A stretch of 64,000 nt of DNA from Mytilus edulis (GCF_963676685.1 NC_092349.1:33604001-33668000); one strand, 5' to 3'; counted from the stretch's first letter, positions 1 through 44,233 are shown. Numbers and translations are program-made. Notes: a model not told the origin generated them from the sequence alone.

Positions 1-1
1 A

Positions 2-358
2 GATTATCGCAACGGACAGATCATAAAATTTCCAGTTACCAAAACATCTATAGGAATCAATAATGTGACTGAATTCCATACTACAGGAACCTTTACTTGT
101 GAAACATCTGGCGTCTACCTACTTGCCGTTCACATTGCGAATTCTGGCAATTCGAATGCAGTATTTGCATTGTACAAAAACAGTAAAGTTATTTCGTATG
201 TTATGGTTGTATATGGGACACATAGTACCGATTATAATTCAGGATCGGGAACTGTAGTCGTTGAAATGAAGGCTGGTGATATTTTACTTGCAAAAGCGAT
301 TGAAAATTTTAATGTACAGGGTTCTTACAGCTGTTTTACTGTATTAAAAATTAACTGA
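2..358 (+). CDS. Terminal exon of a C1q-domain-containing (C1qDC) protein; 5' part lies outside the window
   Basis: Frame is open from nt 2: DYRNGQIIKFPVTKTSIGINNVTEFHTTGTFTCETSGVYLLAV...SGSGTVVVEMKAGDILL...YSCFTVLKIN*. Has gC1q motifs (G.F.C...GVYL, GSGTVVV.L..GD) and AATAAA at 486-491. Clear paralog of exon 43848-44233. Confidence 0.88.
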   Translation, partial: DYRNGQIIKFPVTKTSIGINNVTEFHTTGTFTCETSGVYLLAVHIANSGNSNAVFALYKNSKVISYVMVVYGTHSTDYNSGSGTVVVEMKAGDILLAKAIENFNVQGSYSCFTVLKIN

Positions 359-10051: not shown

Positions 10052-13000
10052 ATGAAGCTTAGAAATGGAAAAATACTAAATACTAAACTTGTTCAAAGGG
10101 TATCTACACGTCTCAATCTTCAAAATCGGTTATCTAAAAATACTACCATCGCTAACATTTTTAACAATAAAAATCGTGGCTACCCTTCTATCGATAAGTG
10201 TCATGCCAAAAAATGACTTACATGTCCCCGTCTTTCCACCAACAATACGGTAAGGTCCACGTTTAATGGTCGCACATTTTCTTTAAATTTTGAAACTGAT
10301 ATAACTTGAAAAACAAACAGTATTATTTATTTACTCACATGAAACAAACCGGGGTGTGGTATTCAGTACGTAGGAGAAACTGGACGATATTTATCTAAAC
10401 GCACTCAAGAACATCTGTATCGTTTTAAAAGACCAAATAAATTCAAAAGTATCATTTACCAACACCTTAAGAAGCACAACCATCCTTTTAAATATTTAGC
10501 AGTTCAACCTTTAGAAGTAGTAAATAAGCAGCCTGGTGAATCGCATTCAAAGTTTGTACGATCACGGAAAATAATTGAATTAAATTGGATTAAAAAATTA
10601 CAGACAGTTTACCCTCTCGGTCTAAATGATAATATCATGGGAATTGGTAATATATCTAGAACCAATACCGTTAACATTTTGGATATAGTTTCTAAAACTG
10701 TTCGTAAAAACCGTTCTCACGGTCGTAGAACAAATCGCAATCAAAGAAAATTTCGGGCCAATCATACCAATATTTCGAACCTAATTTCTATTTCAAAAAA
10801 CAACGGCAGACATTATCTGTTAACAAAACTCTGTTCGTTACCGGTTAATAAGTTAAATAAAATTTTGGAGGATTGCAACACAATTTCATATAGCAGTCCT
10901 AAGTATGAAATTGTTCAAATTATTATGGCATATTGTTATTCTAAATTATTTCCCAAAATTGATCGCCCTGAAGATCATAAAAAGCATTTTATTAAAATTA
11001 AGTATGTCAATAAAGGCTTTGATTTTGTAAATATTGCCGGTATATTTAACGATCATTCTGTTAAAGAACAAATTTCTGGATATTTTGACAATACTGAGCT
11101 ACCTCTTATTTGTTATATTTACAAGAAATCTACCCGGAAATTTGTGTTTAATTATAGTCAATTGTGTAAAGATGTTAATATCAGTGAAAATACACCTACT
11201 TCATGTAATTGCAGTAATTCCGAATATATTTATGGACCCATTTCCCATGTTATAACAGGAGATCTTAACATCGTTCAAGACCGAGAGTTAAAATCATTCC
11301 TCAGTAAAGGACCTAAATATCGTCCCCCGTCAATTATTAATTGGAATGAGTGTCGTAATATCATCCACGACTCACTCCATACTTACTGTATAAAATGGAT
11401 AAAACGGGAAAAAGCTGACAAAAAATCTTTGGACTCTTTTTTTAATTCAGTAATGAAGATAGTTGATATACGTATTCAACATTTTAAAGAACATTTTACT
11501 ATTAACAATAACCAAAATAAACCTATTTCTCGTATCAAACATAAACTAAAAGAATTAGCCAAGGAATTTGTTTTTGTCCCGGCCGATAAAGCTGCTAATA
11601 ACATTATTATTGTTTGACGTAAATTTTACATTGAGGTTCTGAAAAAGGAAATCACCAATTCACCAACATTCCAACTGACTCCATTTTCAGAAAACGAAAT
11701 CTGTAACAAACATAAACTTTTAGCCACCGCTTTAAAAGCAGAGCCAAATACAATGAAAGTCCCAACAATGTATTGGCTTCCGAAGCTACACAAAACCCCT
11801 TACAAATATAGATTTATTTCGTCTTCAAGCCATTGTTCAACTACTAAATTGTCTATTCTTCTTACCAGCACACTTGGTACAATTAAAAACCTTATAATAA
11901 ATTGTTCAAATAAGGCCTTCGAAAATAGTGGAATAAATTACTTTTGGAGTGTCAAGAACTCGTTGGAAGTTTCTTGATAAATTGCATGCTTATATTGGTG
12001 ATTTTGAATCTATTCAAAGTTTTGATTTTTCTACCCTGTATACCACATTGCCTCACATTCTCATTAAGAAAAAAATCACACACCTAATTAAATGGGCATT
12101 CAAAAAATCAGAATGTGAATATATATGTTCAAACTCTTTTAGGTCATTTTTTAGTAGCAATAAACAAAAAAAATATGTTAATTGGACATGCTTTGATACT
12201 ATATATGCCCTTGAATTTTTACTAGATAACATTTTTGTTCGCTTTGGGGATTCCGTATATCGTCAGATTATCGGAATTCCAATGGGGACTAACTGTGCAC
12301 CACTTATTGCGGACCTCTTTTTGTATTGTTATGAGTTACAATTTATGACAAAAATAAGCAAAGATCCATCAAAACAACATCTGATAAACAAATTTAATAA
12401 TACTTTTAGATATTTGGATGATATTTTGGCTCTCAATAATGACGACTTCAGTATGTATATTAATGAAATTTATCCTGCTGAACTTACTTTAAATAAAGCT
12501 AATATTAACAATGACCACTGCCCTTTCCTCGATCTTGATATCTATATCACTAACGGAAAGCTGAATACTAAAATTTATGATAAAAGGGATGATTTTTCAT
12601 TTCCTATCGTTAATTACCCGTTTTTAGATGGTGACGTTCCGTTGTCACCATCTTACGGTGTTTATATATCTCAACTTGTACGATTCGCTCGTGTATGTAA
12701 CAATGTTTTAGATTTTAACGAGAGAAATTTATGTATTACTGAAAAATTATTACACCAGGGTTTTCGATATCACAAACTAGTCAAAACATTTACTAAATTT
12801 TATCATCGGTATAAAGACATCATTCGTAAATATAGCTCAACATGCAGACTTCTTATACGTTCAGGTATTTCACATCCAATTTTTTATGGAAATATTCTTT
12901 ATAAAGCACAAAGGTGTCAGTATTCACCTCAGAAACTTAAAAAAACCTTTGAATAGACTTATTAAGAAGGGATATAATTACGATACTGTTGTCAAGTCAT

Positions 13001-14849: not shown

Positions 14850-17800
14850 GCTAGGCCCAGTGTTTCTGCCGTGTTTGGGGGGAAAATCCCTGAGTCAGGC
14901 TTCATCAGTGGTCGACACAATAAGTTGTATATTGGCGTGTTATTTATGTTTTTTGTTTTATTTCGTATATTATATTGGACCATACACCGGTTGTCTTTGG
15001 ATAACATATTAGTGGATTATGGTTTTTTTTTTGTGAGCTCAGTATCATATTGTGTTGTGTTGTGAAAAGACGAGCAGACTATACCCGCTAATGCTTTGAT
15101 AGTAGTTCTTGTTAATTTGTATGTCTTCTATAAGCTATAATAGGATGATGATTAAATATATTCACACATTCAGGGTTTAATGAAATCAGCTTCCAGTGTT
15201 TTGTAGTTATATTTTTTAGTTTCTGTATAGATGGGTTGTGAATTTTGTTAACATAACTAGTGGTTGTTCCCGTTTCGTTGGGCGTTTTATAAGCAGGTTT
15301 TCCCTTTCTATATTTTGTGTTCTTACAAAATTCGTTGATTTAAGATATTTTATATCCTCGGTTGAGGAGACGTCTTTTTAAAAGCTTCAGACTGTTTTTT
15401 AAGTTCAGTTCTGCTACTGGTGTTTCTGATGTATCTCAATACTTCACCCTTGATAAATCCGTTGAAAACACTTTTCGGGTGTGAGCTGTATCTGTTTAGA
15501 TATTGAGAGGTTTCAGTTGGTTTAGAATATTGTTTCATTACGGGAAAATTCGTAGGTGAACTTCAAGTGCGGGTGTGCAGTATTAGCTATTGTAAGTAGT
15601 TCGTGTATTTCCTCTATAGGTCCGGAATATATAATCCAGCAGTCATCCCTAAATCTGGAAGTCATTATCATTTTGTTTCTGTGCTGAAAGCGTTGTAAAA
15701 CGTTTTCAAGAATGACAAACATTCTAAGGTCGGCCAATTCAGCAGCTGCCGATCCGCCCATAGGCACGCCAAAAGTTTCACGGTAAAGTTTATTGTTAAA
15801 AAAAAATTCATTGTTCTCTAGAATAAGCCTTAATAGGCGAAGTATACTGTTCTTTGGTGGAATTTTTATTTCATACTCGCTTGGATCAATATTGGTCAGT
15901 GCCGCGTTAGTAGTTTTTAGTATTTCATTAAATGTAAAGCAAGTGTACATATTTTTTGCATCGAATGTTACTAGATAGCAGTCTCTTTGGGGTTTAATAT
16001 TTTCAATCTAATTAATAAAACTTGACGTATCTTTTTATACATGTATATTTTTTTTTAACAAGTGGAACAACAAAATAATCGATATAGTGCCCAATACTGT
16101 GTAAGGGCGTTCCACAAATTTTAAATTTCTCGTCTAGCTGTTTCATTTCTCTCCATTTCTGATAGTATATTTTGAGTAAGTTTATGTATTTTAGACAACA
16201 AAAAGAATTTTCCTACTTCAGTTGTATTTATGTTTTCTTTCAAATATTTGAATGTTATATTGTCAATATAATTATCATTATGACGGTCCACTACGTTATT
16301 AAAGACCTTATTGTTTTTCTAATAATGTTATTATTTTTCTTTAGATTCCGATTAGCCGACAATTCCTCGGCAGATATATTTCTGGTGTGTTTGTTTATTT
16401 TCATTCTACTAAGTTCTATTTTTGTTGAGAATATGTAATTTTCAATTGCTGGACAAGAATCCATCGGTTTATATCCCGAATTTATGTAAAAAGGGTGTCT
16501 CTTGTAAATTCTACCATCATTAAAGAGATATCGACATCTAAGTTTTCTTGAGAATTCGTCAAAGTCCTTCATAACGTTTCTTATGGCATTTTTGTTCGAA
16601 GGGTTAATAATGAACTTTACACCTTTTGCAAGTAATAAGGTTTCGTGATTCGTCAAATTATATCCCGATAAATTTTTCACAAATAATTCGGCATTTTTTA
16701 CTAACTTGGTACTATGTAATTTACTCCTTTATTGTTGTTGTTTTCTACAAGTTTATGTCATACTTTTTGTTTTTAATAGTTCGTTTAAAGCGTCTGGCCA
16801 TGTTGATTGTAAAGTAGTGAACTTATTTTTGTACTCGTGCTATTTTAACCTCATTTATCGTATTACATAGCAATTACCTGCAGATAATGTTAGGATCAGA
16901 TTTGTGATAAAAATAGAATGACTTACAGAAGGTTAATTAGGTGAGTAGTTATGAATGGAATATCTGACCTCCTAAGATCTTCACATAGCGTAAATAATTG
17001 TAGTTTGTGGTTTTGCGTAATATAAAAAAAATATAAATTTTACATTTTCTGCACATCCCTGAATAATAGATAATAATACAATTGATATCGTTGAATTTGT
17101 TACATTGTATAGTGTATAGATATTTGATTGTTGTAATCGTTATTGAAATGTTGTGTGTTTATCTGTCTTAACTGGTATACTCTGCATTATATTTAATGGG
17201 TGCAGGGTAGAGAGATATTATATCGTTATCGTTTCGTTTTAGGAGTAATACATAAGGTTTAATTATAATATGTACAGTGATAGTTGATATGGCCAATATT
17301 AATATAATTTTCTTCATAAATTGACTAACCAGTCGTAGTAAATTCATATAATAGAAATAAATACCAACATCTATCATAAACAAGTTTAATGTTTTAATCT
17401 GGAGGTAGACTTACATTTGTATAGTGATATATAGTCCAAAAACTAAGTAGGAACAAATAGCGTGATATATTCAAATGTACAGTTTATCTTCTTCTATTTA
17501 GTTTGCCGGCAGATTCGTGCCTGTTGCAGTAAGGGCGGTTTAGATCCCTATTAAAGTTGGTGGTGTTTCCCGATGTTCAGTTCATTCTGTTCACACTTGT
17601 TCTGTATTCTTCCGTCCAATTGTTTTTAAGTTTAAGTAGTTCATCATTAAACTCGGTGATAGCTTTGTTACCACTTTCAGAACCCGAGTTTAGTTCTTTG
17701 TATAGATCCAGTTTAAGTTTATCAGCATCGACGGTACATTTGGTAGAAAACTCCTTGCAGGATGCAGTTTATTTTTTCCATAATACACTGGTTAGATTCT

Positions 17801-25731: not shown

Positions 25732-26499
25732 AAAATGTTAATAAAAAAGCACATCCTACGAGAATAAATCTATGAAAATATTCCCGAATGTCATCTGCAT
25801 CCTACGTCTGTACGTTACGCGTTCATGCCAATATCTTAAAGTGACATTTGCCTTTAAAGAAAAGAAAAACTTGTGAAATCTAAACGGCGTCCGTACAGTG
25901 GTCCCAGTTTGTCAAACGTTCAATATGACTCTACAGGTGAATTAAAACACGCAGAATGCCATATGAATTCGAAGTAAAACTGTCAGTGTGTTCATATGCA
26001 TATATCCCAGCCACAGAATGGTACTGGATGTCACTTAAGGTGAAATGTGGTTAGTAAGCAAGAGGATGTTACCACTATGGGCGATTTAAAGTGCTCCATA
26101 TAAATTATCTAAATATTGTGGGCTGTTGTACATTTGTCATATTTCCTTATTTATCTGTGTCTCTTCCGGACCTTAAGTTGATATGAGAATTTCATACATG
26201 TGTAGGAGGAAAACATTTATCTTCAGAAATGAACCACCGAAGTGTATTTTGAATATCAATTCATGAAGTCAGTCTGAAATTCTGAATGCGTAAAGTCATT
26301 GTACACAACCCACGATTGTGGTCTACGTATTGCATGATAGATAAATCACGTAATAAAGTCATGAACTTGCTTTAATCGATACGTATTTATGAAAAGATAA
26401 GATTTAAGTAGAAATTCTGTAACTAGAACTAACATATGTTGTGATTCTGTCTTTCTTACCTGAAGGTCTTACATGAGCTTAGGTAGCATGGATTTAACT

Positions 26500-27098
26500 A
26501 TGCAGGTACGTTTTCTGTCTTGCATTATTCTTACTGCTTGTCATGGATTTTTGTTGACCAATAAAACAGGAATACCTTCCGTTGGAACATCCGCATTCAC
26601 CGACTATCATTACCTTATGTTAACGGATGCGTTGGGCGCACAGAAGCAGTTACTCTCACAAATGGAAACTTTTGTTCTGCAACTTCAAAACCAATTGAAA
26701 ACTGTGAACCAAGAAGTCAAGGATTTAAAATCTGGAAACAGTGCCGTGCATCAGTCGCTTGCTGTTGTCGAATTGAAAAATGAAACCTCTGAGTTGCGCG
26801 TAAAAACAACCCGTTTACAGAATAGCTATGACATTTTGCAAAAAAAATTCGATACTATTCAAAACGAAAACAATGTCCTGAAGCATGATAATGCTGCATT
26901 AAAAAGTCAAATTACGGACTCGCACAACTTAAGTATTCATACAAAGCAACAGTTGGATTCCCTCACACACTCCATTGCCGCTTCAAACATCCAAAACGTT
27001 ACCACAATACAAAGCAATGTTGACACGCTTACATCTCAAGTAAAAAGTCGACTTCATTCATTGGAACAGAACTATGCTCTTCTTTCTAAAGAGATCAG
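26500..27098 (+). CDS. Secreted coiled-coil C1qDC gene, coding exon 1, 5' part (signal peptide and coiled coil), interrupted by the Harbinger insertion
   Basis: MQVRFLSCIILTACHG/FLL signal peptide-like start, then a heptad-rich coiled coil. The frame runs into the TIR at 27099. An upstream in-frame ATG exists at 26473. Confidence 0.85.
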
Positions 27099-27301
27099 GC
27101 CCCGGCGCCATAAAACTATTTGAGTACAGTTTTTTTACTCAGCCTGAGAATTTTCTCAATTTTTTTATTCTCAGCAAAATACTCCGCCATAAAAAAATTC
27201 TCAGGTATTTTCTTACTCAAAGTTAAGAATATTCTTAAATATTTGAGTACAGCCAAAACCATACTTAAGTCAAGACTTAAGACTTAAGTATTATATAAAC
27301 A

Positions 27302-30300
27302 ATGGCTGCTGTCCATGTACGCCGTATGAGAAATCGCAATCGTAGACAGAGACACCTACCTAGGCCAAGGGTTTTTAGAGACAGGCTCAATCCACTTGAG
27401 TCTATGGATGACAATGAGTTGTTTGAGAGATATAGGTTTCGTCGACCAACCATCACTTTTATTTTAAATGGAATTCACCATTTTCTTGAGCGTGAAACTA
27501 GGAGGAATTTCGCACTGTCTCCAGTTATTCAGTTGTTGTTATTTCTAAGATTTGTGGCAACAGGCACTCACTTGAGTTTAGTTGGGGATAGCTTGAATGT
27601 ATCTGAATCGGCAACTGGGAGGGCCTGCAGAGACGTTTGTCAGGCCATCATAACCGTATTTCAGCATGTTATTTCTTTTCCCGTTGGTGAGAAGGCTATC
27701 CAAGTAATGGAAGGATTTAGGAGAATTGCTGGTAAGAAGCTGCTATCTATTCAGTTTCAGCATGCATCTTACTCATCATTTCACATAGCAATTTTCCGAG
27801 TAATCGGACTTTTGTGTTTCACAAACACGTCTAAACCGGTTTACGCTCATCACCACTATGACTAGTTTTTGGGCTCTCTTTGAGAGCACTTTTAATATGT
27901 TCATACAAACTAAATTGTTGGTTCTTTTTCATTATGTGACATTATGCCAGTTTTTCTGACCTTCTTTGCCTTCCCGGCTTTAGTTTGAACATGTAAATTG
28001 TAAACATTTGCTGTACGTACCTAATTATCATGTATAGTATACAGATTTTCTTGACAGTAACAACGAAAATGATGAAAATAATGACCGTAAGATTACCAAA
28101 TAAAATTGCATTATGCAGTTTAAAAGATACTATAATGCAGAGATATTTGGATAATTTGACAATCTGTCAGGAACCCTACAGTAGAGGAGCGTCTGCAAAA
28201 TCTTAATAAAAACGACTTCGGACTTGCGTCATCCGGATCAACATGGTTGCTTCGTACCTCGAATAGCACCGTCCCTTTTTGGGGAATGTTTGTTTTATGA
28301 AGTAAAATTCAAATCCCTTTATAGTATTTTCCTCCCTCTAAAAAAAGAAGAGAAAATACAAGGGTCGACAGGAAACAATACTCAAAAGTTTTCTCTGAGT
28401 TCATCCCTCTACTTTATTCCACTTTACAGATAGTTATTTTTTCGTTAGAGGGCTATTGCAACTACATGTATGAGGGTCTGGATTGGGGGGGGGGGGGGGG
28501 GTGGTCTGTTATTCTGTAAACATTTAATTTTCACCCCTTTTTTCTCTAATCTTTAAAAAAAATAACCCCTTTTTTCTCTAATCTTCAAAAAATTAACCCC
28601 TTTTTTCTCTAATCTTCATTTTTAATTCAAACCCTGATGTATTTTCCAAATATCCATTACCCGATAATTAAATATTCCACCGGGTGAATAAGAATTTTCA
28701 CTAACATAATCGTAAACTTTTAAAATCAGTTAATAAGCCATGTAAAAAATGAGGGGTTTAAATTACAAAAATCTCCGTAGAAATGAGATGTACCGTGACT
28801 TATATTATAACATATCATTAACTTACCGTATGTTGCTCCTATTTAACTTCTCATACTACATCATAACTTTCACAATGAAATGCCTTTTATAGCCGACTAT
28901 GCGGTATGGACTCTGCTTATTGAAGTACATTGCCCTATAGTAGTTGTTAATTTCTGTGTCATTTGTTCTCTTCATCTTTTTATATACATTGTAGTCAGGA
29001 AGCTAATGTTCAATGACAATTGTTTGTTAATGTGGTTCATAATTGTTTCCCGTTTTTATAAAGATTAGACCGTTGATTTTCATTTTTGAATGGACTAAAA
29101 CTAATCATTTTTGAGGCCCTTTGTAGCTTGTTGTTGGATGTGAGCCAAAACTCATTGTTGAAGCCCATGCTTCGACCTATAATGCTTTACTTTTCCCCAT
29201 GTGGGTGTTGGATGGAGAGTTGTCTCATTTGCACTTATATCACATCTTTTAACATTTATATGAGCATAAACCTTTTTCAGCTGATGCCCCTGGAAACACT
29301 ATACTTTTGTCTCAGTATTTTACTCTTTGTGTAGGCAAGACAAAAATGAAATACGACTGAAATCATGACTAAATTTCAGACACCAAAAAAGCAATGTAAA
29401 GTCAACAGCTTCTTTTTGTCGGAAGAAATAGATCAAAACACAAAAACTTAACACTGTGCAATGAACCTTGAAAATGAGGTCACGGTCAAATAAAACCTGT
29501 GCGACTGACATAAAGATCATAAAATATTTCCATACACCAAATATAGTTGACCTATGGCATATAGTATTAGATAAAAAGACCAAAACTCAAAAACTTAACT
29601 TTGACCACTGAACCATGAAAATGAGGTCAAGGTCAGATGACACCTGTCAGTTGGACATGTACACCTTACAGTCCTTCCATACACCGAATATACTAGCCCT
29701 ATTGCTTATAGTATCTGAGATATTGAAAACTGGGCCCATAATCAAAAATCTAATTACATGTTTAAATTCAGCATATCAAAGAAGCCCAAGAATTCATTTT
29801 TTGTTAAAATCAAACTTAGTTTAATTTTCGACCCTTTGGACTTTAATGTAGACCAATTTGAAAACCGGACCAAAAATATATAGAATATGGCAAAATCCGT
29901 ATCACATTCGACCAATATCATCCCTCGGGCTGATATTGGTGTCTCAGGATGATACGACATATGATACAGATTTTACCATGTATTATTCTCTATATATCGA
30001 CCTCATACAAAGGCTATATTTGTTTAATATCCAAATTATATATTGTACCAATTTGCACTATATATTATATAAGTTGTATTGTTTACGAACAAATAATTCT
30101 TAAAAGGTTGGTCGAGAGGACCTCCGGTAGTTGAGATTGATGTTGGCTATTTTTCAATAGACCACATTGGCCGAACTTCTTTTCATAACAAATGTAAACA
30201 AGATGGCGGTGATAATAACAAAGAAGTTAATAAAATTCAATTCACTGCACGTTATTCGTTAAATAAAATAACTAAAACAAATAGATTTGTTTGAATGATA

Positions 30301-32155
30301 AGAATTTTTGTAGTTTAATTTTTACAAGATTGCAAATTTCAAGGTATACATATTTTTGCATAAATATACAACTTATGTGGGACAGAGGTTAAGTGTTGGG
30401 AAAACATATTTTCCTTATTTCAAATTTTAAACAATTATAAGGATTGAATGCCTTTTTAAAGGAATTCATTGGTGTATAAACTGGACCAAATAACTCATAA
30501 ACATATAATAAAAGTCCTTCAGACTTCAATTTGTTTGTGAGTGAATTGGTTGAATTTACACACCAGTGAAGTCCTTTAAATAGGCTTTAAATCCTATGAT
30601 AAAATATTGTTATTATACTGAGCACCTTTTAATGATTCTTTTTTATATTTGAAGGATTTCCAAATGTACTAGGATGTATAGATGGGACGTTTGTAAAAAT
30701 TATCAGCCCACATGAAAATGAAGCCGATTTTTTGAATCGAAAAGGAGTGCACTCTTTAAATATTCAAGTAAGATTAACAATTACAGAAAATAATCCTTCA
30801 AACAATATCATTTTTTTTTTGTGCTGATATAATCATAATTTCATTCAATTACAATTTTGCATTGTACTTCGAAAAATGAATTGTCGATTGTCAAATTTGG
30901 AAATAGTCTTATATGCAAAAAAGAGAACTGTATTTTAATGCAAAAGTTAAAACTATTTATTTATTTTTATATTTAAATAAGCGGATCTGTTGTGTGCAAT
31001 TAAATACTACATTTTTTAAGGTAAACAATGTTAATTTCAATTCCTGATAATTTGAATGTCATGCCAATCAGATTACATGATACATACTGTTTACATTAAA
31101 AAATATGTTGCCTTAGTTTTAAATATACCATTCTTTTTTTTAAAGATGGTTTGTGATCCAAATTTTAGAGTCACTTCTTTATGTGCAAAATGGCCTGGAT
31201 CAGTGCACGACAGCAGAATTTTCAGAACAAGTGGACTATGTCAACAATTTGAAAATGGTAACTTAATCTCATTTTGTTTATTCTTATTAGTAGAACTGTA
31301 GAAAAACTTCTTAATCTTCAAAACTAAAACTTTACATACTAACATATAGTATATTCCAGCATTTACACATATTTTAGGTTTAAGATGAACTTGCATGTAA
31401 ATTTACCATAAATCTTACAATATAATAATGAGTCATTTAAATAGCTAACACAAGCTAGTAAACATATATACATATTTGGTCATTTGGTGTTGATATGCTA
31501 ATTACAATTTCTTGTATATAGTTTTTGTGAAGGAATGCAAATAAATTGTTGTGCTTATACTTAAATGCATCAATAGTGGGGAGATAATTGTGAAGTTACT
31601 TCCCTTTGCTGAAAGTATATTATTTGATTTTTAATACAAATAAATTGGAAGCTGTAGTTTCTATAACTGTTTATGTTACAAGCTTTAACTGCTTTAAACT
31701 GAATGTTGATTTATTTGATTAATTTGAAATACAATCTGTAAATATTACATTAAAAAATTATTTTAACAGGAATTCACCAAGGACTGTTACTAGGGGATTC
31801 TGGGTATCCATGTACCAAATACTTGATGACCCCGTATCTAAGTCCAGCTGATAACTGCCAGGGAAATTTGAACAGAGCTCTTTGCAGAACACGGGTTCTA
31901 ATTGAACAAACATTTGGGATACTAAAAAGGAGGTTCAATTGTTTACATGATGGTTTAAGAACAACACCAGAACAGTCTATTAAATACGTTACATCATGTG
32001 TTATTTTACACGATATCGGCATTAATCATAATGACATAATAATAAATAATAATATTGAGGAACTTGCTATTGCAGATTGTACGGGTTGTATTAATATGAA
32101 CCCAACCTTTGACGGCACCGCAAAAAGGAATGACATTGCAAGACAATTTTTTTAA
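27302..32155 (+). CDS. Harbinger DDE transposase (HARBI1-like), 4 exons: 27302-27731, 30655-30767, 31146-31257, 31770-32155; 346 aa
   Basis: All introns are GT-AG and phase-compatible. Spliced product has RYRF, GFPNVLGCIDGT, NRKGVHSLNIQ, WPGSVHDSRIF, LLGDSGYP and RVLIEQTFGILKRRF, with the D-D-E triad intact and no stops. Confidence 0.93.
29340..29880. repeat. Dispersed repeat with internal ~150-bp tandem subunits, inside transposase intron 1
   Basis: gaaaatgaggtca.ggtca...ccatacacc.aatata...ct.t.gc.tatagtat occurs twice (~29470 and ~29617). Confidence 0.5.
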
Positions 32156-32527
32156 GTAAACCTTGCATTTGTAAACATCTTACTAGATTTCCATATTCAC
32201 ATTCTCTTGACCACACTTGATTATTATAACATAGAACTTTTCTAAGTCATGTCTGACAGGTAAAAATACATTTTTGGTCTTATTTGAATTAATAATTACG
32301 AATATATTAAAAAAATAAGGGATCTCTTACACAAAGATTTGATAAGCAATATGCAACATATTTATAGCCACTACTGATCTAAAACCTGAATTAAATATGC
32401 TGAAATATACAGTTGGTTACATTTAAATGATATGAATATATGTCAAAGTGACAAATTCTAATGCAACAACGTTTGTAACGTTCATTTTGATTGGATAACG
32501 TCACTTATCTACAGGGCATCAATTAAC

Positions 32528-33315
32528 AATTGATGCTATGGAACGTACGCGCAAGCGCAGACGGCATATGCCAGTTTTTAAATACATGTTTTAACGTTGT
32601 TTTTTGTCAGTTTCATTAGAATGGAGATAACAATATTGTATTTTAAGCTCCGACGGCATCAATTGTGGATTTGATGGTCGCAAATAATCGTTTACTGTCT
32701 CCGCTTACGCGTCACCAGTTAACTGAATTTACGACCATCAAATCCCCAATTGATGCCGTCGGAGCTTAAAATACAATACAGTTATCTCCTAATTGATGCT
32801 ATGAAACGTACGCGCAAGCGCAGACGGCATATGCCACTTTTTAAATACATGTTTTAACGTTGTTTTCTGTCAGTTTCATTAGAATGGAGATAACAATATT
32901 GTATTTTAAGCTCCGACGGCATCAATTGTGGATTTGAAGGTCACAAATACTCGTTTACTGTCTCCGCTAACGCGTTGCCAGTAAACTGAATTTGCGACCA
33001 TCAAATCCCCAATTGATGCCGTCAGAGCTTAAATACAATACAGTTATCTCCTAATTGATGCTATGAAGCGTACGCGCAAGCGCAGACGGCATATGCCACT
33101 TTTTAAATACATGTTTTAACGTTGTTTTCTGTCAGTTTCATTAGAATGGAGATAACAATATTGTATTATAAGCTCCGACGGCATCAATTGTGGATTTGAT
33201 GGTCGCAAATACACGTTTACTGTCTCCGCTAACGCGTCGCCAGTAAACTGAATTTGCGCCAATCAAATCCACAATTGATGCCATCGGAGCTTAAAATACA
33301 ATACAGTTATCTCCT
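32528..33315. repeat. Three tandem ~263-bp units, each containing a long inverted repeat
   Basis: Units start at 32528, 32791 and 33053. Each has ~60-bp arms ggagataac...gctccgacggcatcaattg.ggatttgatggtcgcaaat / attt.cgaccatcaaatcc.caattgatgccgtcggagc...gttatctcc. Confidence 0.92.
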
Positions 33316-33426
33316 AAATGGTTACAATGTTAAACAAAATTTTACCAAGTACATGTGTTTGAATGAAAAACAGTAATAATTTTAAGTTATTTAAAATTGA
33401 ATGCCAAAATATCCAGATTTAAAGGA

Positions 33427-33880
33427 AGGCCAAATAAAAATATATGTGTGGTTCCAGTTACATACTTTTAAAAAATAGGGTTGGTAGGTCAGCAATTTTT
33501 TTTTTTTTTTTTTTTTTTTTAATGTCAAAATCCGGAAAAGAATCGTGTGTTTACCGAAATTGTTTCCCTTATTATACACGCCCCAACCGGAAGTTTGACA
33601 TTTTTACATGGGTGTGGTTGTAAAATGAACAGCCATGATACATTTTTAGTTAAATTTTGTTGCATTCTGTTATGAATTCTTGCATTTAACCATAACAGAT
33701 ACTTGTGATGGAAATTCAGATGACAGAAATCTATGAATTTAATTATTTTAATTCACAATCCTCAAAATTTGATCTTTTGAAAATTTATTTTTAAGAAATG
33801 AAAAAAAAGTTCTAGGGTCTGGGGGTTTTAACTAGGGTTGGTCGGGTTACTGGAACCACACATATATTTTTATTTGGCCT
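33427..33880. mobile_element. MITE nested in the Harbinger, between the two genes
   Basis: 32-bp perfect inverted termini aggccaaataaaaatatatgtgtggttccagt / actggaaccacacatatatttttatttggcct. Confidence 0.85.
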
Positions 33881-33896
33881 AATAAACATGTTGTAA

Positions 33897-36800
33897 TTAT
33901 GGTTCATTTAAAATTTGTACACAGTCAGGAAACTCAGACTGAAGTTTACAGATTAAAGTTTGTTTTTTCAGGATAAAAACTTCTTTTGCCAATTTCAAAT
34001 TTTCTTGTTCCATCTTTATTTTTTTGGTTTCTTCACGCAACCTTTCATTGTCCAACATTAAGTTTTCCTCTTCCAACTCTGCCAAACTCCTTCGTCCCCT
34101 TTTGATGTTTCCTATGGACATGAATTATAAAACATATAAAGTTGTTATAAAGTTATACAAATGTACATTCTTTTTGAATTTCATGATGAATCTGCTTTGT
34201 GAGCTGTGTCATAAAATAAGTTAATATCAAACCTTCTTATAATAAAATAGCTGAATCCATTTAAAGACATCAAGAAAATTAATTTGTATTTATTAAGTTA
34301 TGTCCTATATGCAAATTACAATTGTGCAACAAGGTGGTTAAATTTTCAAAGATTTAGTTCCCCTTTGCTTGTTGAAATAATTATTCATTTTAAAATCCTA
34401 GAAACATTTTCATTTTCATATATCTGTTTTATTTGTTAACAGTGTTTAGAATGAATTTTTAATTATAATTCTACATAAATAAATATGATTTGTTTTTTGT
34501 ACCTGAATTAAGCCATTAGTTTTCTTTTTTTTGAATTGTTATACATCTGTCATTTCAGGGACATTGATAGAAGGCAATGCTGTATAGACTGCTCATTGTT
34601 GAAGGCTAAACAAAAGTCTTTAGTTGTTAATGTCTTTTGGTCTATTGAGGAGAGTTGTGTCATTGCCAATTATACCACATCTTCTTTTTTAAAGAAACAT
34701 TTATCCTACTTTTAAAATGATTTTATTTAATTTCCTAGGTAGCAACATGAACAAATATGTCTATGTTGATCTCTTGTCTGGTTCAAAGTGATAATGATGT
34801 TGCAATTTCAATTGTGACGGCAATCATGTGATTCACATGTTTTAATCGAATTTATTATTAGAACATGGTTGGGTTTCCAAAGCCATAGAATAAACTCATA
34901 TCAGAATCCATAACTTTTGAAAGACAAATTAGCCCTATGTTAGGAAACTTACCTTTACCTTTACCCTTTGGATTAGAACTTGGTACACTTGTCCTTTCAC
35001 CATTTTGTTCTATAAAAATCAATTTTCATGTAAACATTCATAGATTTTTATTACATTTTACATGGACGAAGACTTCAATTTTCAAACATCAACCCCATCG
35101 ATACATTGTAAAGAGGTATACTATTTCACAAATATATAGGAAATGCCCAGGTTTTATTTGCTACTGTAGACGTTTATTATCTCAAAAAGGTTATATATAT
35201 ATGTTTTATTTCAAATATGTATTTAATAACAGTTTTGATGTTATCAACTTAACCATTTTCTTTTCAACAATTATCAAAAATCACTTTTTTCATATGTTTG
35301 TCATATATAACTTGATAGTTTCAATTGCAAACTAAAAAAAACTGTTGTTCTAAAATAATCAAATATACAATAAGCTGGGTTAATTTCATGTTATGTCCAT
35401 GCCATATCTGGGGCCTGTGATTTTGAAGTATTTTTTTTCCATTTGTAAAGGTCACCTGTGTGTAATTGCTCAATCAAACTTTTTATCACTTGTCAATTTT
35501 TCCAATGGGATCCATTACAGGAAAGACAAAAATGAAATACTTTATGTAACATATATGTTACTGTATAAATGTTGAAGACCATATTTTTAATAGATTTTGT
35601 CATACTCAAGACTTTGAATTATATACATGTATTAACAACTTTACCTTGTTCTTCCACTAAATTTACTTCAATACATGTAGGCTCTTTGTCAGCTTCAATC
35701 TGTCCATCAAGCTCCTCATTTTGTGTCGATTCTGAAATGTAATTGCATTATGTTGTATAAGTTTATTAATAATTTACTATAACTTCAGAAATGTAATAAA
35801 ATTGACACTGCCTTGACAATATTTTTGTTGTTATTTTTAAAAACATTAACTATAGTTTTTTTACACTAAAACTTAGTCTGACATGAGCAGTGGTGAGGGA
35901 GACAAATTACAATATTGAGAAAATTGAGAAAGGAAATGGAAAATATATCAAATGGTCAACAACTGGACCCAATAGAAGTTGACCTCCTTGACCTTTCACA
36001 CCATCACATTGATTGTATACTAATATATATTTTAAATAACCGGAAATTAGTTTCTTTTTCTGTTGCCAAATTATTCATTTCATGTAAATTGGTTGGAGCA
36101 ACAAACCTTTATATGTGTTTTCTTTTATAAATATCACCAAATCATTGATCAACGAAGGTAAATCAGGTGTTTTTAAATTTCTCAGGCAACTGTATGTGTG
36201 ACATAGGTAATTCACCAATAAATCACTTTGTGATTCATCTTGCTCCACCTCACTCTGAGAAATTCCCTTTAAGGTATCCATAATGTGAATATCATTGGCT
36301 CTTGGGACTGGTGTTACAACTGTATGAGTGTCTAAAAAATTTTCTATTTTTACTGCCATTTTCTTGGCTGTTGTCACCAAATTTCTTTCTGAAAAATGAG
36401 ACAATGGTTGAAATGACTTTATGCATGTCATATTTCTATGCATATTCATTTCTGACCTATATAGGAAGTTGTAGTGCAAGACATACATGTCAGGTTGGTG
36501 CTTATTTATTGTATATCTAAACTTAATTGTCATTATGGGACTTCAGGCAGTGACCATTTAATGAAAGTTTAGCTTTTTTCTTAAGTAATTTTCTGATTTA
36601 TAAGCAGGAAAGACAGACATCTATAAGTAACAATATCTGTTCCTCAAATAATATCAGTTAGATTGGAGATGATGAAAATCTTACCCCTGAGCATGATCAA
36701 TTTTCAAGCCTCTTTCTTTCATATGTGTTTATTTCTTACACAAGAAGCATGAAAACAGCAAACTGTAATAAATGTATAAAGAAACAAGAGATTGTAAAAA

Positions 36801-39800
36801 ATAAAAATACCTGATAGTTCTTTGTAGGCATCAAGAGCCTCCTTCTGTCTTGAAATCCAAGATCCAGAACATTCAGGTTGTGATGCAATTGCTGAAATAA
36901 GGCATATACTATCAGTTCTCATTTCGGACAAAATACCACATGTAACTAACTGACCAACAGTCCCACAAATAAAACCTTTAAATTAATTCAAATCAAAATG
37001 TAGAAAAAAAAAAGACAGATGACTGGTTTAATATAGGTTAATTACAGATCAGGTTACATGTGTTTATTATGCAGTAACAACAATAGAAAAACATTATTAA
37101 CTATATTGTAAAAACCATCCTATGATAACTTTAATGCATTATTGATGCAACACCAAATTTATCAAAAGCTGCATATTATTGTATTCAGTTTTAGACTTCT
37201 TCTATACTTTATTATTTACAGACTTTAATAAATAAAATCTACATGTAATTCTGGTGGTAATTCCACGTTTCACATGCATGTCACAATATATTGTCAGAGA
37301 GAATAGAGTGATTAATATCTTGATGTAGGAAGATGTGGTGTGAGTGCCAATGAGACAACAATATATATACATGTAATACTAACTGTCAGTGTCTACACCG
37401 TCTGGAAAACCAGTCAGCTGTGTACGCTTCTCTTCAATCATATGACTGATGAGGAGTTCCTCTGCCTGAGTGGTTTTGGCAGCAGGACCTCCTCCTGTTT
37501 TTGGTCTCTTTTGTAGGTCATATTTTTCTCTACCTAAAAAGCATATATGTTTTTCAAATTAAGCAAGTTAAATATATTGGACTATAAAACAACTCAATTT
37601 CTGTTATTATGTCAATGGTAAAAGGGATTAAAGGGGATACAATTTGTACCGGAAATTATTAGGACAATATCAGCCAATCACATTGTGAGAAATCGTGATA
37701 ATATTAAACATACATTATAGAAATGTATCAACGATTTCACATCTAAAGGAAGCATTAATGTTTCCCCATTACACTGATGCCCCACTTGCACTATCATTTT
37801 CTATGTTCAGTGGACTGTGAAATTGGGGTCATATCTCTTATTTGGCATTAAAACTTTTAAAAACAAACATATCATGAGGAACATGTGTACGTGGGGCATA
37901 AAAATGTTGCAGTTAAAATGTACATTTTGAATATAGTATGGAATGAGAATTATTTTCTTAATTTTCTGTTGTTTTTCTAGTTCCCATTTAATGAAGCAAC
38001 AAATTGTTAAATTAATGTTGCCTTATGATGAATGAGATATTATACACCTGTTGACTGGGGGTGAGGGTAATAGCAAGTTTTTTGTGCCTGAGATACCAAC
38101 TATTGCTTGAGGCAAAGCCGAGAGCAATAGTTGGTAAGCGAAGGGACCACAAACTTGCTATTACCAGCACAACCAGTCATTAGCTGTTTTATTATACTGA
38201 ACAACACAGCCGCTAAGTGATTTTATATACAAAATAATTATTTTTCTAAGTGTATATATAACATCTGAAAGAAAAGAACTAGAGGCTCTCAAGATCCGGT
38301 ATTGCTCACCTGACTCTATTAGAGTTTGACGTTGCAAAGCATACATAACCAAGCAGAGTAGTCAATGACATCATTATTGTCCAATGAAAAATAAGCATAA
38401 AAAAGTATGGGAAAGATGATTATGAAACTATTAACCAGGGCAATAGTCTTTCAAATTATTGACTGGCAAATGTTTCTGTGGAATGAAATAGCACAACTAT
38501 TTCATTATTTTTTATATAAAAAAAACATACTGAGGTATAATAAATTGCTTTAGTATAAACACAACATGAAACTATTGAACTTACTTCTCTGTTTTAGGTT
38601 GTAGTACTTTTTCTTTACTTCTTCAGCTGTTCTTTTACGAACTGTAAATCTTCTGCATTAGAATTAAAAAGCCAAATGTTAATGAATAATAGGAAAATTT
38701 AGGCCCTGAAATTAATTTAAATTTAAAAGAATATGGATTTAAAATGGTGCTTAACTAATAAATAAAGGAAAATCAAATCATGGGCGACAATGATTAAATA
38801 AATAAATATTTGATAATCCCATTCTAAGCATTCAAACCCTCATTTATAACCGTTGACATGTTCCCCTACGACTATGTTCATTGACTCTGGTACCCAACAA
38901 AACAAAATATCATAGTGCACAGTATATGCTGTGCTTCTCAAGTTTCAGTCTCACTATTTAAGTACATAATAGACGTTTTCACAAGCAGGGAATTTAAAAT
39001 ATTTAACGGAATCACTAAACACACAAAAAATATGTTTGTTAGTCAATTCATTATGTCAGTTTATTTATAAAAACAAATCAACTAAATACCGTTCATTTAT
39101 AATGAAGACTTCAGAATAAAGTAAATGTTAGTCATTTGCCAATACACCTTATCGCTATTTGTCCGCCATTGCTGGAAATCACACAGGTTCCCGTAAAATT
39201 TTGACGTCATAAAACAAAATGTCTGACGCCACAATGGAAAAGTGATTGTTGTTGACGTCAAAAGTTCAAGCGGACGGGTCAGCCGGGAATAGCGATAAGG
39301 TGTATTGTCATGTTCATCGTGAATGAAAGAAAAGGGATACATGTATTTTCACATATTTTGTTATTTTCATAGCTTTGAGTATAGATAGTAAGGCATGTTA
39401 TTAACACTATTATGATGAAATAACATTGAACAGCAACTATTTTTAACAATTTTTTCTTGTTCAAATTGTAAAAACCTAAATAGCTTCAGGGGGTGCCCCC
39501 CTGACCACCTGCCTCGTTATAAACAGAAGGCAAGCTACGCCACTGAAATTACATTTAGTTTCCAGACTAGTATCATGCAGTTATATTGGCATTGCTGGGA
39601 CTGGGAACAACTCGTCAACTATTTTGTTGACAAAATCAATAAAGATATCAGGGCGAACGTGAAACAGTGCTAATCGCCAAATGGATCCGGATTCTTCCAA
39701 TTATATAATGACGAAGAATCTGATACAACTGACATACTCATTCTGAGAACGTTTAATAAATTGGGAAAATGAGAACCTACGCATTCAAAATATCACAGAT

Positions 39801-39956
39801 TTCCTTCCAGCCATTTTGCCGAATCGTAGCAATTTTCACATCCCCACAACCTTTCATTTTCCCAAAAAGGGCATCCTCCCTTTGATTTGCGTGGTCTATA
39901 AGGGCTAGCTCCTCGTCAGTGGTCCAGTTTGCACCTCTCTTGTTTTTTTCAGCCAT
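33897..39956 (-). CDS. Harbinger Myb/SANT-like DNA-binding protein, 7 exons: 39956-39781, 38652-38585, 37533-37384, 36891-36811, 35731-35645, 35009-34953, 34111-33897; ~277 aa
   Basis: GT-AG introns in compatible phases give MAEKNKRGANWTTDEELALI...GWKEICDILNA-RFTVRKRTAEEVKKKYYNLKQR-SREK...KTGGGP...GVDTD, an acidic linker and a C-terminal coiled coil. Exons 4-6 are less certain. Confidence 0.82.
38066..38165. repeat. Long imperfect hairpin element in a Myb gene intron
   Basis: Outer arms ggtaatagcaagttt / aaacttgctattacc, inner arms taccaactattgct / agcaatagttggta, apex ggc-aaa-gcc. Confidence 0.75.
39140..39307. mobile_element. Small MITE in Myb gene intron 1
   Basis: 20-bp perfect TIRs caatacaccttatcgctatt / aatagcgataaggtgtattg; flanks tcatttgc / tcatgttc resemble a decayed 8-bp TSD. 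Confidence 0.8.
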
Positions 39957-40261
39957 TATGGAGGCCACTAACAACAGAACTTACCTTGACAGACGACTCT
40001 ACCATCAAAACTCACCTGCATTTTCGCGGACTTTAGCACTCTTTTTTCGGTTTCAAGCACGAAAGAGTTCCGTCTACCGCTTACATCGTGGAGAAAAAAA
40101 TTCTCAGCTGAGAAAAAATATTCTCAGCTGAGAATATTCTCAACGTTGAGAATATTTTTTTATGGCGGATAAAAAAGTTCTCATTCTTAGCTGAGTAAAA
40201 TAATTCATTCTGAGAATATTTTTTTACTCAGCAAAAAAAAGTTTTATGGCGCCGGGGCCAG

Positions 40262-40299
40262 AACTGTAAACGGAACGATCAAGGAAATGGACCAACATG
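40262..40299 (+). CDS. Remainder of C1qDC coding exon 1 after the Harbinger
   Basis: Removing the element plus one CAG gives ...SKEIR-TVNGTIKEMDQH-G|gtacgt, a phase-1 donor at 40300. Confidence 0.85.
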
Positions 40300-40696
40300 G
40301 TACGTACATAAAACATTCTTCACATTATCTAATAATCTATTATCATATTGTAGTATACTGAGTGACTGGCAACCATTTTGTCATTCGACATCTATTTTAA
40401 TTAATAAATCCTTTAATAACAATGACTTTTCCTGCTTCGAACAACATTCATTAACAAAAATCAAGCATCTTCGACGTTTACCTTTTCGGATTTTCTTTTA
40501 TCAGGAAAACGCAGGATTGAAATTAAGTCCAACCGTGTCGAGTCTGATGTTGCTCAAATAACTTTTTGAGTAAATCTTGAAATGCATGAAATGCAATCTT
40601 AACACTACGGGATTGACTTTTAATATCTAAATCATCCAAGGTTTATTATTAATTTTTAGATACACAAAAACAGTGCATTTATTTAAACACTCTTTA

Positions 40697-41380
40697 AGGG
40701 GCACTAGCTACGAGATATATAAAAAGTCTAAAGTATGATTTTTTTTTATCAATCATTAATGAAAGTCAAATAGTGAAATAATAATTTGCTTTTATCAGCT
40801 AAAATAGTTCAATTTTGTCAAATAAAGCTAATAAACATTGATAATGAGTTATTCACTTGCAAGTGAAAAACTCGACCTCATTAAATCCGTATTCATGTGA
40901 ACTCCAATTTAACTCCGTAGAAAGAGACAGTATTTGCATGCATTGCCCGTGTATGGTTATTTAAAGGAAAATAATGTCAACATTGAAAGTGAAACAATCG
41001 TAAATAATTTGTTGACTAAATCAATCCACAATTTTTTTTCTTATAAAGGTAAAAACGACGATAAACATAAATTTAAAATTTATAAAACAAAATTTAACAG
41101 ACCTATAAAAATATAATTGCACGAACTTCTTGATCTATTTATATCTTTGTTTATGTTTCCATCGCTTATATGGTCATAGAAGGTCAACTCGATAGTTAAT
41201 TAGATGGCGTCTTGGCTAAAATTCTTACCAAACGAAGCTACATCTTATCGAGACCATGGCCTGTAAATTGTTTATCTTTTACTTTTGATAGTTTGGGAAA
41301 ATGTTTAAGAGTGTTACAATTAAACAATATATTAGAATTTGAATCAAATCGGTGAACATGAATTTGAAGCTAGTGCCCCT
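40697..41380. mobile_element. Non-autonomous DNA transposon at a TTAA-like site (Kolobok-like termini)
   Basis: 13-bp TIRs aggggcactagct / agctagtgcccct flanked by ttta / ttaa. Confidence 0.7.
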
Positions 41381-43499
41381 TTAACATGATATCCATGAAA
41401 TATTTCCTATAGAAATCATTGGTCTTATGAAATGGATCTCAAACAGACTTGCTTGATTTAAGATCTAAACATGAATGAAAAAGTGTTTGGTTGTTTAAAA
41501 ACAAAATAATAAGTATTTGAAACAAGATTGGAACAAATTGTCTGTACCAAACGAAAGTCCCCCCTTGTTAGCCACAAGATGAGTGGTGAGTTCAAAAGAG
41601 ACACATGGTCACATTTTAAAAGTGCCTCAAGTCACCCATTTTAGTAAAGCTTTGACTAGAAGTTTTTTGCACTTAGTAAATACAGCTGTTTCTTAAACCC
41701 CGTCTCTTTTGGGTAGATCTGTAAAATTCATAGATAATTTTATTTGTTGACATTATGGTTCCCAGATATGAACTCTATGTTTTATAGAGACATGATATCA
41801 GACATAACTTGGGACTGTTACCAGCATAACAATATACTATATTGCTGTGAAAATGAGTTCTGAAGTAGGAAAAAAGTAAAGGAAAATTCAAAACAGAAAA
41901 TCCAGTAACAAACCACAAAATTTAAAGCTCATACGCATCAAACATGCAAAACGGGTTACTTAGTGCAACCTACACTGACATTTCGTCAAATAGAAAACTC
42001 TCTAAAACACGTTTTTCTCACAACAGTACTTGTTTATCAGAAATATAGCCTTATAGAAATCACTGTATAAACTCTCTATATAAGTTTTCTGTTAAATAAT
42101 TTTAAAATAATAAAATGATAGCATGTACAAGTTAATCATCTGTTTTATGACAATATGGGGTAGACATTTTTCTCAGTTTTTTGCACCTAGGTCCTCGCAT
42201 TTACTAAATTATATCTCTGTAATTTTTGAAGCCCCTTATAACTTGCTCTTTGGTATGAGCGTACGCTCTGTGTTGAAAACCGCACCTTGACCTATAATGT
42301 TTTAGTTTTATAATTTCACAATCGTAGAAATGGAAGCCATTTTAGGGATGACGCGCTGCCAATTTTGCTCTTGAAAACCGATAAATTTATCCGCATAACA
42401 CCATTGCGATCCTTATATGTCAGTTGTATTTTAAAAGACAAATGTATCTACTAGCTAATGAGCATTAGTTAATGATCTTGTCTGCATTGATTCAACTTAG
42501 AATTATTGTCTAATCGGTTGTCATGTGGAATTTTTGAAAATTCATAAATATTTAAAAGAATTCTAATTAAATATTTCGTGGAAGAGCAGACTAGATTTCT
42601 TTAGTGGTTGAACACTATAAACCTTAGTGTTCACCCAAAAAACATTATGAATTTTCAAATATATCTTTTTTCATCATCCAACTTGAAAGACTGTCGTCAA
42701 GTACTTTTATTAAAAAAAATAGCTATTCGAACACTCTGTTTTTATGATTCATTAGATAGGTATTTCATTTGACCCATATAGTTCATCTTTTAGTACCGTG
42801 ATTTTTTAGGTTATAAAGTCAACCTGTAGCTTTGATATATAAAAATGATAGAATCTGAAGCGAGATCATGTATTAAATATTCTTGCTTTGTACGTTTTCA
42901 AGACAAAATATTCAACTGAAACACGCCCTGACGTAAAATGTGCACTTGATTTTCTCTTTTCGATACAATTGTTACCCATTTTTTAGAATTTTTTCTTGAG
43001 TCACATAATGGAAGGGCAGACACGAAAATAACGAGACAACGCTCAACTATAGCAAAATAACGTAGAAGCTAAATAAAATATGTGTCATACCAACTAAAAC
43101 AATGAAACAAAGACACAATGCATAGTCAGCTATGAAATGTCTCGAAATGAGAAATGTAAGACAATTCAAACAAGAAAAATGAGGGCTGATTTGTGTTCAA
43201 ATCAATAAACGGAAAAAGATGTGATATACATCGACAAATAACAACCATTAAATGAAGACAGACATCCAACGCGAGAAATTCTAAAATCAATGAAATGAAA
43301 CATTTATTCCTATACATGTTTCCTCTGACAACTTCACAACAATGCATTGGAAAAAAACACCTTTTTATTTCATGATTGTAGCACAAAGTAGTTTTAATTT
43401 GTCATTTTCTTCACTTTTTAAAAAATGACTCGGTCAACATTTTTACATCAAAATAAACTTATAAGAATAAACATTCAACCTTAAAACATTTATTCATTA

Positions 43500-43666
43500 T
43501 CACTTAACTAGTATATACATTTGTTTAAGGGCCAGCTGAAGGACGCCTTCGGGTGCGAGAATTTCTCGATGCATTGGAGACCTGTTGGTGACCTTCTGCT
43601 GTTGTCTGTTCTATGGTCGGGTTGTTGTCTCTTTGACACATTCCCAATTTTCATTCTCAATTTTAT
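43500..43666 (+). repeat. Solo Naiad 3' pseudo-LTR fragment in the C1qDC intron
   Basis: Aligns to 13530-13692. Confidence 0.85.
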
Positions 43667-43847
43667 ATGACATATGTTCTGAACGATAATTTTTTAAAAG
43701 GAATTTCATAACCCGTCGTTGTTCCACTTCTGTGTTCAAGAAAGTAAACTGCATTCAAAATATTCTAATGTTTGTAAGTTACAACATCATTACTATATTT
43801 AGGTTTAATTTCAGGTTACTTTTGAAGATTTTTCATTTTAATTTCAG

Positions 43848-44233
43848 TGGCCTTAACATCATGTGGTAAAAACGATGCAGATTATATCGGTGGACATCTT
43901 ATAAAGTTTCCAGTTACTAAAACTTCAATAGGAATTAATAATATTGCAGAATTCGTGAAAACTGGACAGTTTAATTGTTCAAAATCCGGTGTGTACCTGT
44001 TTTCTGTGTTTGTTACGCGTGTTGGCAATGGTGATTCACAATTCGGAATGTACAGAAACGATCATCCTATCTCATCTGTAATGATTGAATATGGCGCAAA
44101 GGGGAACCATTTTTCAGGATCGGGAACTGTTGTCGTTCAGATATCTGCTGGTGATATCCTCTCGGCAAATACCGTTAGCAGTTTCCGTGTCAGTGGTACT
44201 TACAGCTGTTTTACTGTAATAAAAATTTATTGA
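43848..44233 (+). CDS. C1qDC terminal exon (globular C1q domain)
   Basis: atttcag acceptor, phase 1 (G+TG=Val): VALTSCG...LIKFPVTKTSIGINN...GQFNCSKSGVYLFSV...SGSGTVVVQISAGD...YSCFTVIKIY*. AATAAA at 44261. Confidence 0.9.

Follow-up and report, generated by a model that had tools for sequence, protein, structure and literature searches.

Transposons of the PIF/Harbinger type depend on two proteins, of which the Myb-like one binds their terminal inverted repeats (TIRs), while the target is cut with a 3-nt stagger; as a rule they excise precisely (109 of 110 cases in yeast), with microhomology coming from the duplicated target (PMC2836001, PMC4561436, PMC11254759). In the NuwaI group of PHIS, the target is described as CWG, the TIRs as short, the genes as encoding a DDE and a Myb/SANT protein, and the mean length as ~4.5 kb (PMC4482050). 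A member from the oyster Crassostrea gigas, NuwaI-1_CGig (Harbinger-2_CGi in Repbase), has a CWG target and a 19-bp TIR (Han et al. 2015, PMC4482050). Plant genes disrupted by Harbingers are known (PMC11161486), and bivalve Harbingers have been catalogued as 58 curated consensus sequences, selected with a 300-codon open-frame filter (PMC10294476). Type II C1q genes of bivalves grow by tandem duplication and the coiled-coil tails of their products are believed to bring the chains together as oligomers (PMC6835236), while the dispensable genes of mussels are enriched for C1qDC genes (PMC7653742).

Here we describe a locus in Mytilus edulis, analysed as a window of 64,000 nucleotides (NC_092349.1:33604001-33668000; all positions below are counted from its first letter), in which an element of this kind interrupts a C1qDC gene (Table 1). 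We consider it likely that a complete NuwaI-type Harbinger entered the C1q exon by a recent germ-line jump and that the result is a rare, probably heterozygous null allele of little effect.

Table 1. Features of the interrupted C1qDC gene and of the element within it (window coordinates)
Feature	Position	Strand	Remarks
C1qDC coding exon 1, 5' part	26473..27098	+	residues 1-209, predicted signal peptide and coiled coil; identical to P0012 here
Left target-site duplication CAG	27096..27098	+	
Left 19-bp TIR	27099..27117	+	perfect match to right end
Premature stop TGA, interrupted C1q frame	27121..27123	+	216 aa
DDE transposase, 346 aa	27302..32155	+	exons 27302-27731, 30655-30767, 31146-31257, 31770-32155
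Three tandem 263-bp units, high-copy repeat	32528..33320		between the element genes; also in sister copy
Myb/SANT-like gene, 258 aa	33897..39956	-	convergent with transposase; six exons in open frame, 39956-39781, 38652-38585, 37533-37384, 36891-36811, 35731-35645, 34111-33897
160-bp MITE-like insert, inverted ends	39144..39303		in first Myb intron; not in C2 sister copy
Right 19-bp TIR	40240..40258	-	
Right target-site duplication CAG	40259..40261	+	
C1qDC coding exon 1, 3' remainder, then GT donor	40262..40299	+	
C1qDC exon 2, with the globular C1q domain and the stop codon	43848..44233	+	Pfam C1q (PF00386), E 9.3e-8, above cut-off

A sequence-only reading of the window had described a Harbinger with perfect TIRs and target-site duplications (TSDs) in a C1q coding exon, an allele that ends at 27123 and a transposase start codon ~200 bp inside the element on the C1q strand. 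All three descriptions hold: the 19-bp TIRs start from 27099 and 40258 with CAG on either side, the frame closes at the tabulated TGA, and the transposase ATG at 27302 lies 203 bp inside, being the earliest ATG of the element. Removing 27099-40261 in silico and splicing 40299 to 43848 (GT at 40300, AG just 5' of 43848, phase 1) gives a single open frame of 349 aa that agrees in 349 of 349 residues with P0012, i.e. VDI72734.1 or UniRef A0A8B6H296 of Mytilus galloprovincialis. The rejoined protein had been called complete, which stands for the frame, while its signal peptide is a prediction made by eye from a hydrophobic stretch at about residues 14-27. The first in-frame ATG is that at 26473, not 26500. 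Besides the C-terminal C1q domain, the protein has a coiled-coil tail, as indicated by weak coiled-coil Pfam matches, predicted heptad contacts and 51% hydrophobic residues at a/d positions in the best register. The insertion point is a CAG within the Ile-Arg codons of residues 208-209, the final 7 residues of the filled allele are encoded by the TIR, and the proposed knock-out is a consequence of the TGA ending at 27123. The public Mytilus edulis model of this gene, P0013 (CAG2252264.1), reaches only as far as residue 187, short of the insertion site, which would be either a separate truncation or a break in the annotation.

The local C1q paralogs form a small birth-and-death cluster. The nearest paralog of the interrupted gene is an intact tandem copy ~30 kb upstream, with 393 aa and an equivalent intron, 59% identical in the tail and 55% in the head; broken C1q paralogs also lie near the locus. 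The tail of this intact tandem paralog occupies window 1-358 (+), and versions of exon 1 that have decayed through stops and frameshifts are found at 61315-61667 (-) and at locus L072. An in-frame coiled-coil stretch of 49 residues in the upstream paralog (L071:5865-6659) is missing from the interrupted gene (window 27037-27040), which makes the latter a shortened duplicate in its own right. In the assembly as a whole (G000) there are 955 C1q candidates at first look, and all of the 150 that were scored lie above the cut-off. Elsewhere in the window, 2585-6155 (-) contains ankyrin-repeat frames in many short, stop-interrupted pieces beside a 259-aa frame of another kind, and probably represents an ankyrin gene in decay. 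At 10343-12956 (+) and 15522-16728 (-) there are disrupted reverse-transcriptase frames that include a GIY-YIG-like stretch, and we take them to resemble Penelope-like retroelements.

The allele without the element was sought in 7 of the 24 available sequencing runs, representing 6 samples, and was called from mapping to the left junction alone (26300-27150), contig depths being kept out of copy-number estimates. It was read directly in three of the four runs at that junction (X1, X10 and X14), where the letters that follow 27098 are 40262-40291 and a single CAG marks the empty site. In the fourth, X11, a 583-nt contig likewise ceases to match at 27098, with its loose end outside the listed rows. 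In X10 and in X5, 461 letters of a 581-nt contig match the window from 40259 onwards, and the contig of X10 also covers 26976-27098 (461 + 123 - 3 = 581). X4 had no piece at either junction among those listed and is excluded from the count. Mapping of four runs to the 18-kb locus was swamped by nested repeats, and a skip over the element was absent among the joints listed. Together with the public gene model P0012, these animals bear out the proposal that the insertion is polymorphic, and the read mapping across individuals that had been suggested as a check thus found the empty site. By these sequences, the empty allele is common and ancestral, and the filled one rare or private, with its junctions taken from the assembly.

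Since the join of exon 1 to the TIR was absent among the contigs listed for the 7 runs and 6 samples (contigs drop rare variants), the insertion might not be germ-line at all, but a chimera of the assembly or a somatic event in the sequenced tissue; X1, possibly the source of the assembled DNA, has the empty allele and leaves the TIR uncovered. We regard this reading as quite improbable. A chimera is not expected to bring an exact duplication of a CWG triplet to both ends, and the indels and substitutions that separate the element from its sole sister copy argue against a collapsed duplicate. A clonal somatic event, in turn, seldom wins an assembly. Moreover, X10, which carries the sample label of X1, departs from the window sequence at several positions of both host and element, so that the X1 and X10 runs do not match the assembled haplotype. 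An empty haplotig was not found in G000, a result that is silent on zygosity.

Transcription of the host gene was followed in RNA run X7, where a 549-nt contig matches C1q exon 2 from contig letter 161 onwards; the 160 preceding letters, outside those listed, are as many as a spliced empty allele would contribute (123 + 37), an agreement of lengths by arithmetic. The empty allele thus appears to be transcribed. In the same run, no spliced transposase or filled-allele transcript was seen, and its element pieces are of low depth, 3-8% diverged and unspliced, which is no evidence either way on expression of the element. No variants of exon 1 were found in any of the four runs mapped to the left junction, and this invariance may reflect constraint rather than dispensability.

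The element measures 13,160 bp (27099-40258), of which 1,818 bp are coding; the extra length is made up of introns and spacer, several of them filled with high-copy host repeats. Its exon models are predictions from reading frame and splice signals, all 8 introns being GT-AG. The transposase, whose longest exon has 143 codons, carries the motifs CIDG (D153), GDSGY (D228) and IEQTFG (E264), and matches Pfam DDE_Tnp_4 above the cut-off in exon 4 (E 1.1e-15) and exon 3 (E 3.9e-8). The first exon of the Myb/SANT-like gene (58 aa), the sole one scanned, resembles Myb_DNA-bind_5 weakly and below the cut-off (E 0.007, 16.7 bits against 21.7). By these features, the element is classified as a PIF/Harbinger of NuwaI type with a CWG target: its CWG duplication is confirmed by the empty site, its 19-bp TIR is within the range of 12-61 bp, and its DDE_Tnp_4 domain has the D/D/E residues. 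The TIR begins with GCC, against the GGG that is usual, but not required, for NuwaI according to PMC4482050. The earlier description of the element as intact holds for the open GT-AG frames and the DDE motifs only, and is qualified by one coding difference. At window 30732, transposase codon 170 encodes Leu, whereas Val is found in the sister copy C2 and in all four runs mapped there, so the Leu would seem to be either a private change or an assembly error. The phase of transposase exons 1 and 3 permits an in-frame splice to the C1q head exon; such a chimeric splice was considered and dropped, as it is phase-compatible but without support, and no C1q-transposase chimeric contig was seen among the data.

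To place the element within its family, exact matches to the TIR were collected from G000. There are 45 of them (23 forward and 22 reverse), with 0 for the reversed control, and the flanks of the 44 distinct termini read CAG in 20, CTG in 17, CCG and CGG in 3 each and ATG in 1. CAG or CTG thus accounts for 37 of the 44, with C at -3 in 43 and G at -1 in all 44; beyond CWG the target preference is weak (A-rich at -7/-8, C/T at -4). Around the exact TIRs, 32 loci were compared, and only one, C2, matches the interior of the element. Most others resemble it solely in the outer 172 bp on the left and 184 bp on the right, at 84-97% identity. These short copies (1.2-7.4 kb) are mostly ~90-95% identical to each other, and no pieces of the transposase or the Myb-like protein were found in 15 of them by tblastn. 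They were rejected as fresh offspring of the window copy, since the 15 examined encode neither protein and share with it only the 172/184-bp ends, and are better regarded as older non-autonomous relatives. Several more Harbinger families with many equal-scoring copies point to more recently amplified Harbingers in this genome. One further Harbinger-like transposase family has three equal-scoring open copies (G000:C13:34648192, C13:34693381 and C3:104685420) and is 44% identical to exon 1 of the transposase described here.

Among the short copies with two TIRs, 5 of 13 (L035, L037, L038, L043 and L044) have TSDs that differ in the middle base only, with 0 of 26 outer bases changed. For L035 and L044, empty-like copies of the surrounding repeat show a single 3-bp target, which means that neither arose when two insertions were joined. 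The mismatch would be consistent with a 3-nt overhang that is carried along from the donor and ligated; in mPing such an overhang was shown to travel with the element (PMC11254759). Recombination between copies or plain mutation may explain the rest, in agreement with the fact that every target is C-x-G.

The sister copy C2 is 99.7-100% identical to the window element, which differs from it by 5 clear substitutions (8 if indel edges are counted) in ~12.2 kb, or ~0.05%. C2 was rejected as a second master, given that it lacks 27488-28250 as well as the initial 30 bp, and that 13 kb of adjoining sequence contain no TIR; the 160-bp insert is absent from it as well. When G000 was searched for transposase exon 1 and for a unique stretch of a Myb intron, with counts that are lower bounds, no third close copy came up, and the window element is the only complete one found there. 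By comparison, the host C1q intron and exon 2 differ between the window and four X10 contigs at 17 letters in ~2.26 kb, or ~0.75%. The divergence between the two element copies is thus about a tenth of that between the host alleles, from which we infer that the move is younger than the standing variation, in line with the earlier claim that the insertion is recent. Animals with the empty site also hold near-identical pieces of the element (0 differences in 1450 letters in X10, 7 in 1174 in X5), which indicates that copies exist elsewhere in their genomes.

A likely course of events would begin with a cut-and-paste jump in the germ line, in which the Myb/SANT-like protein would bind the ends of the element and the DDE protein would make a cut staggered by 3 nt at the target CAG in the C1q coding exon. 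Host transcripts that run into the element would then meet a stop after 7 codons, and would likely be ended or spliced within the element and degraded or silenced. With splicing at the transposase donor, the stop would lie 608 nt upstream of the junction and message decay would be expected, as a stop well before a splice junction is a usual trigger of decay, by a rule known from vertebrates. Loss of the C1q protein would likely be buffered by the other allele, by the intact paralog ~30 kb upstream and by the hundreds of other C1q genes; redundancy of this paralog is assumed, given that it is only 55-59% identical. The matching TSDs would leave a copy able to excise cleanly, so that reversion would leave no footprint; if expressed, the element would be expected to excise and restore C1q in that cell. 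Excision footprints, which had been proposed as a check, are the wrong test, because PIF/Harbinger elements generally excise without them (PMC4561436, PMC2836001). The window copy, with a 160-bp insert of its own and one coding change, need not be brand new or active.

A different fate of the transcript would follow from early polyadenylation within the element; intron 1 of the transposase contains AATAAA at positions 28099 and 28205. The message would then escape decay, and a secreted coil without a head would spoil the three-headed C1q trimer. This dominant-negative effect, also proposed by the sequence-only reading, is structurally feasible: the short chain retains residues 1-209 of the 221 that precede the head, bivalve coiled-coil tails are thought to drive oligomerization (PMC6835236), and one short chain with two full ones (P0012 40-349) is predicted to form an in-register three-stranded coil. 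The prediction scores 0.61, against 0.00 for the best of 3 controls, its runs agreeing in at least 42% of contacts with partner pLDDT of at least 70. In microbes, 51 of 78 solved complexes attain the mark applied to such scores, as do 2 of 108 mismatched pairs; the corresponding figures for eukaryotes are 39 of 65 and 2 of 126. A self-pairing coil, however, can pass by its likeness to solved coils, being a coiled coil was no criterion in the choice of controls, and the model speaks for the fit of the short chain, which is distinct from its expression. Neither RNA nor protein of the filled allele was seen, and the position of the stop 608 nt before the donor favours decay, so we judge a poisoned trimer rather unlikely.

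It had been suggested as well that the host promoter drives the transposase, and the C1q promoter might indeed read into the element, raising transposase expression, for instance on immune challenge. The two genes have the same orientation, the stretch between the TIR and the transposase start is free of ATG, the empty allele appears to be transcribed in X7, and G000 yielded no other complete transposase of this family. Nonetheless, a frame of 216 codons, ending 178 nt before the transposase, would make the latter a second cistron, and re-initiation behind a long frame is poor. The Myb/SANT partner, which is required, lies on the opposite strand and would gain nothing, animals that lack this insertion also have near-identical copies, which move without the help of this host gene, and chimeric contigs were not seen. 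The suggestion therefore fares badly, and we consider it very improbable.

The most far-reaching reading takes the element for a live, intron-rich master copy of 13 kb that has just jumped and that would make the C1q allele mutable: precise excision would turn the gene on again in sectors of the animal, while cells that keep the element would secrete a headless chain that poisons the trimer. If true, the element would be an animal Harbinger active in nature, its excision reported by the host gene itself, and a start for a gene-transfer tool in bivalves. We hold the master-copy reading to be unlikely.

On the favoured explanation, a recent jump that left a rare null allele, the element points to a Harbinger family that is probably still mobile. 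A transposon in an exon is textbook material, and the loss of one C1q gene among hundreds is probably of little consequence. The value of the locus lies in a farmed bivalve's natural element copy, whose two genes are both open and which seems to have moved very recently, in one route by which the immune-gene repertoires of mussels diverge between individuals, and in a precise site for measuring excision.

As regards previous descriptions, the host gene is like the secreted type II C1q-like proteins of bivalves (PMC6835236) in its coiled-coil tail, single C1q domain and tandem paralogs, but unlike them its haplotype is interrupted here. No report of this element or of a Harbinger insertion polymorphism in Mytilus was found in the literature searched, with Repbase and Dfam outside the search. 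The bivalve library of PMC10294476 could include the family, but its filter argues against this, as an element with a longest transposase exon of 143 codons would be missed by surveys demanding an open frame of 300. The insertion in the EIN2 gene of melon (PMC11161486) is similar in that a Harbinger disrupts a host gene; in plants the targets are TWA, and activity and phenotype have been demonstrated, whereas for the mussel element we can only infer activity. With the Ping/Pong/mPing system of rice (PMC2836001, PMC4561436) it shares the two-gene autonomous organization, non-autonomous relatives that have only the ends in common, and the expectation of precise excision. By description it also resembles NuwaI-1_CGig, likewise from an animal host, in its CWG duplication, 19-bp TIR, DDE gene and putative Myb/SANT gene (PMC4482050); compared to the NuwaI group as described there, the mussel element is distinguished by its length of 13.2 kb, three times the usual ~4.5 kb, and by its 8 introns, several filled with repeats. 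Finally, the reconstructed Harbinger3_DR of zebrafish (PMC3016246, PMC2836001) likewise has a CWG core target and needs two proteins, but it is reported to prefer a long palindromic target, whereas the mussel element is a natural open copy with a weak preference outside CWG.
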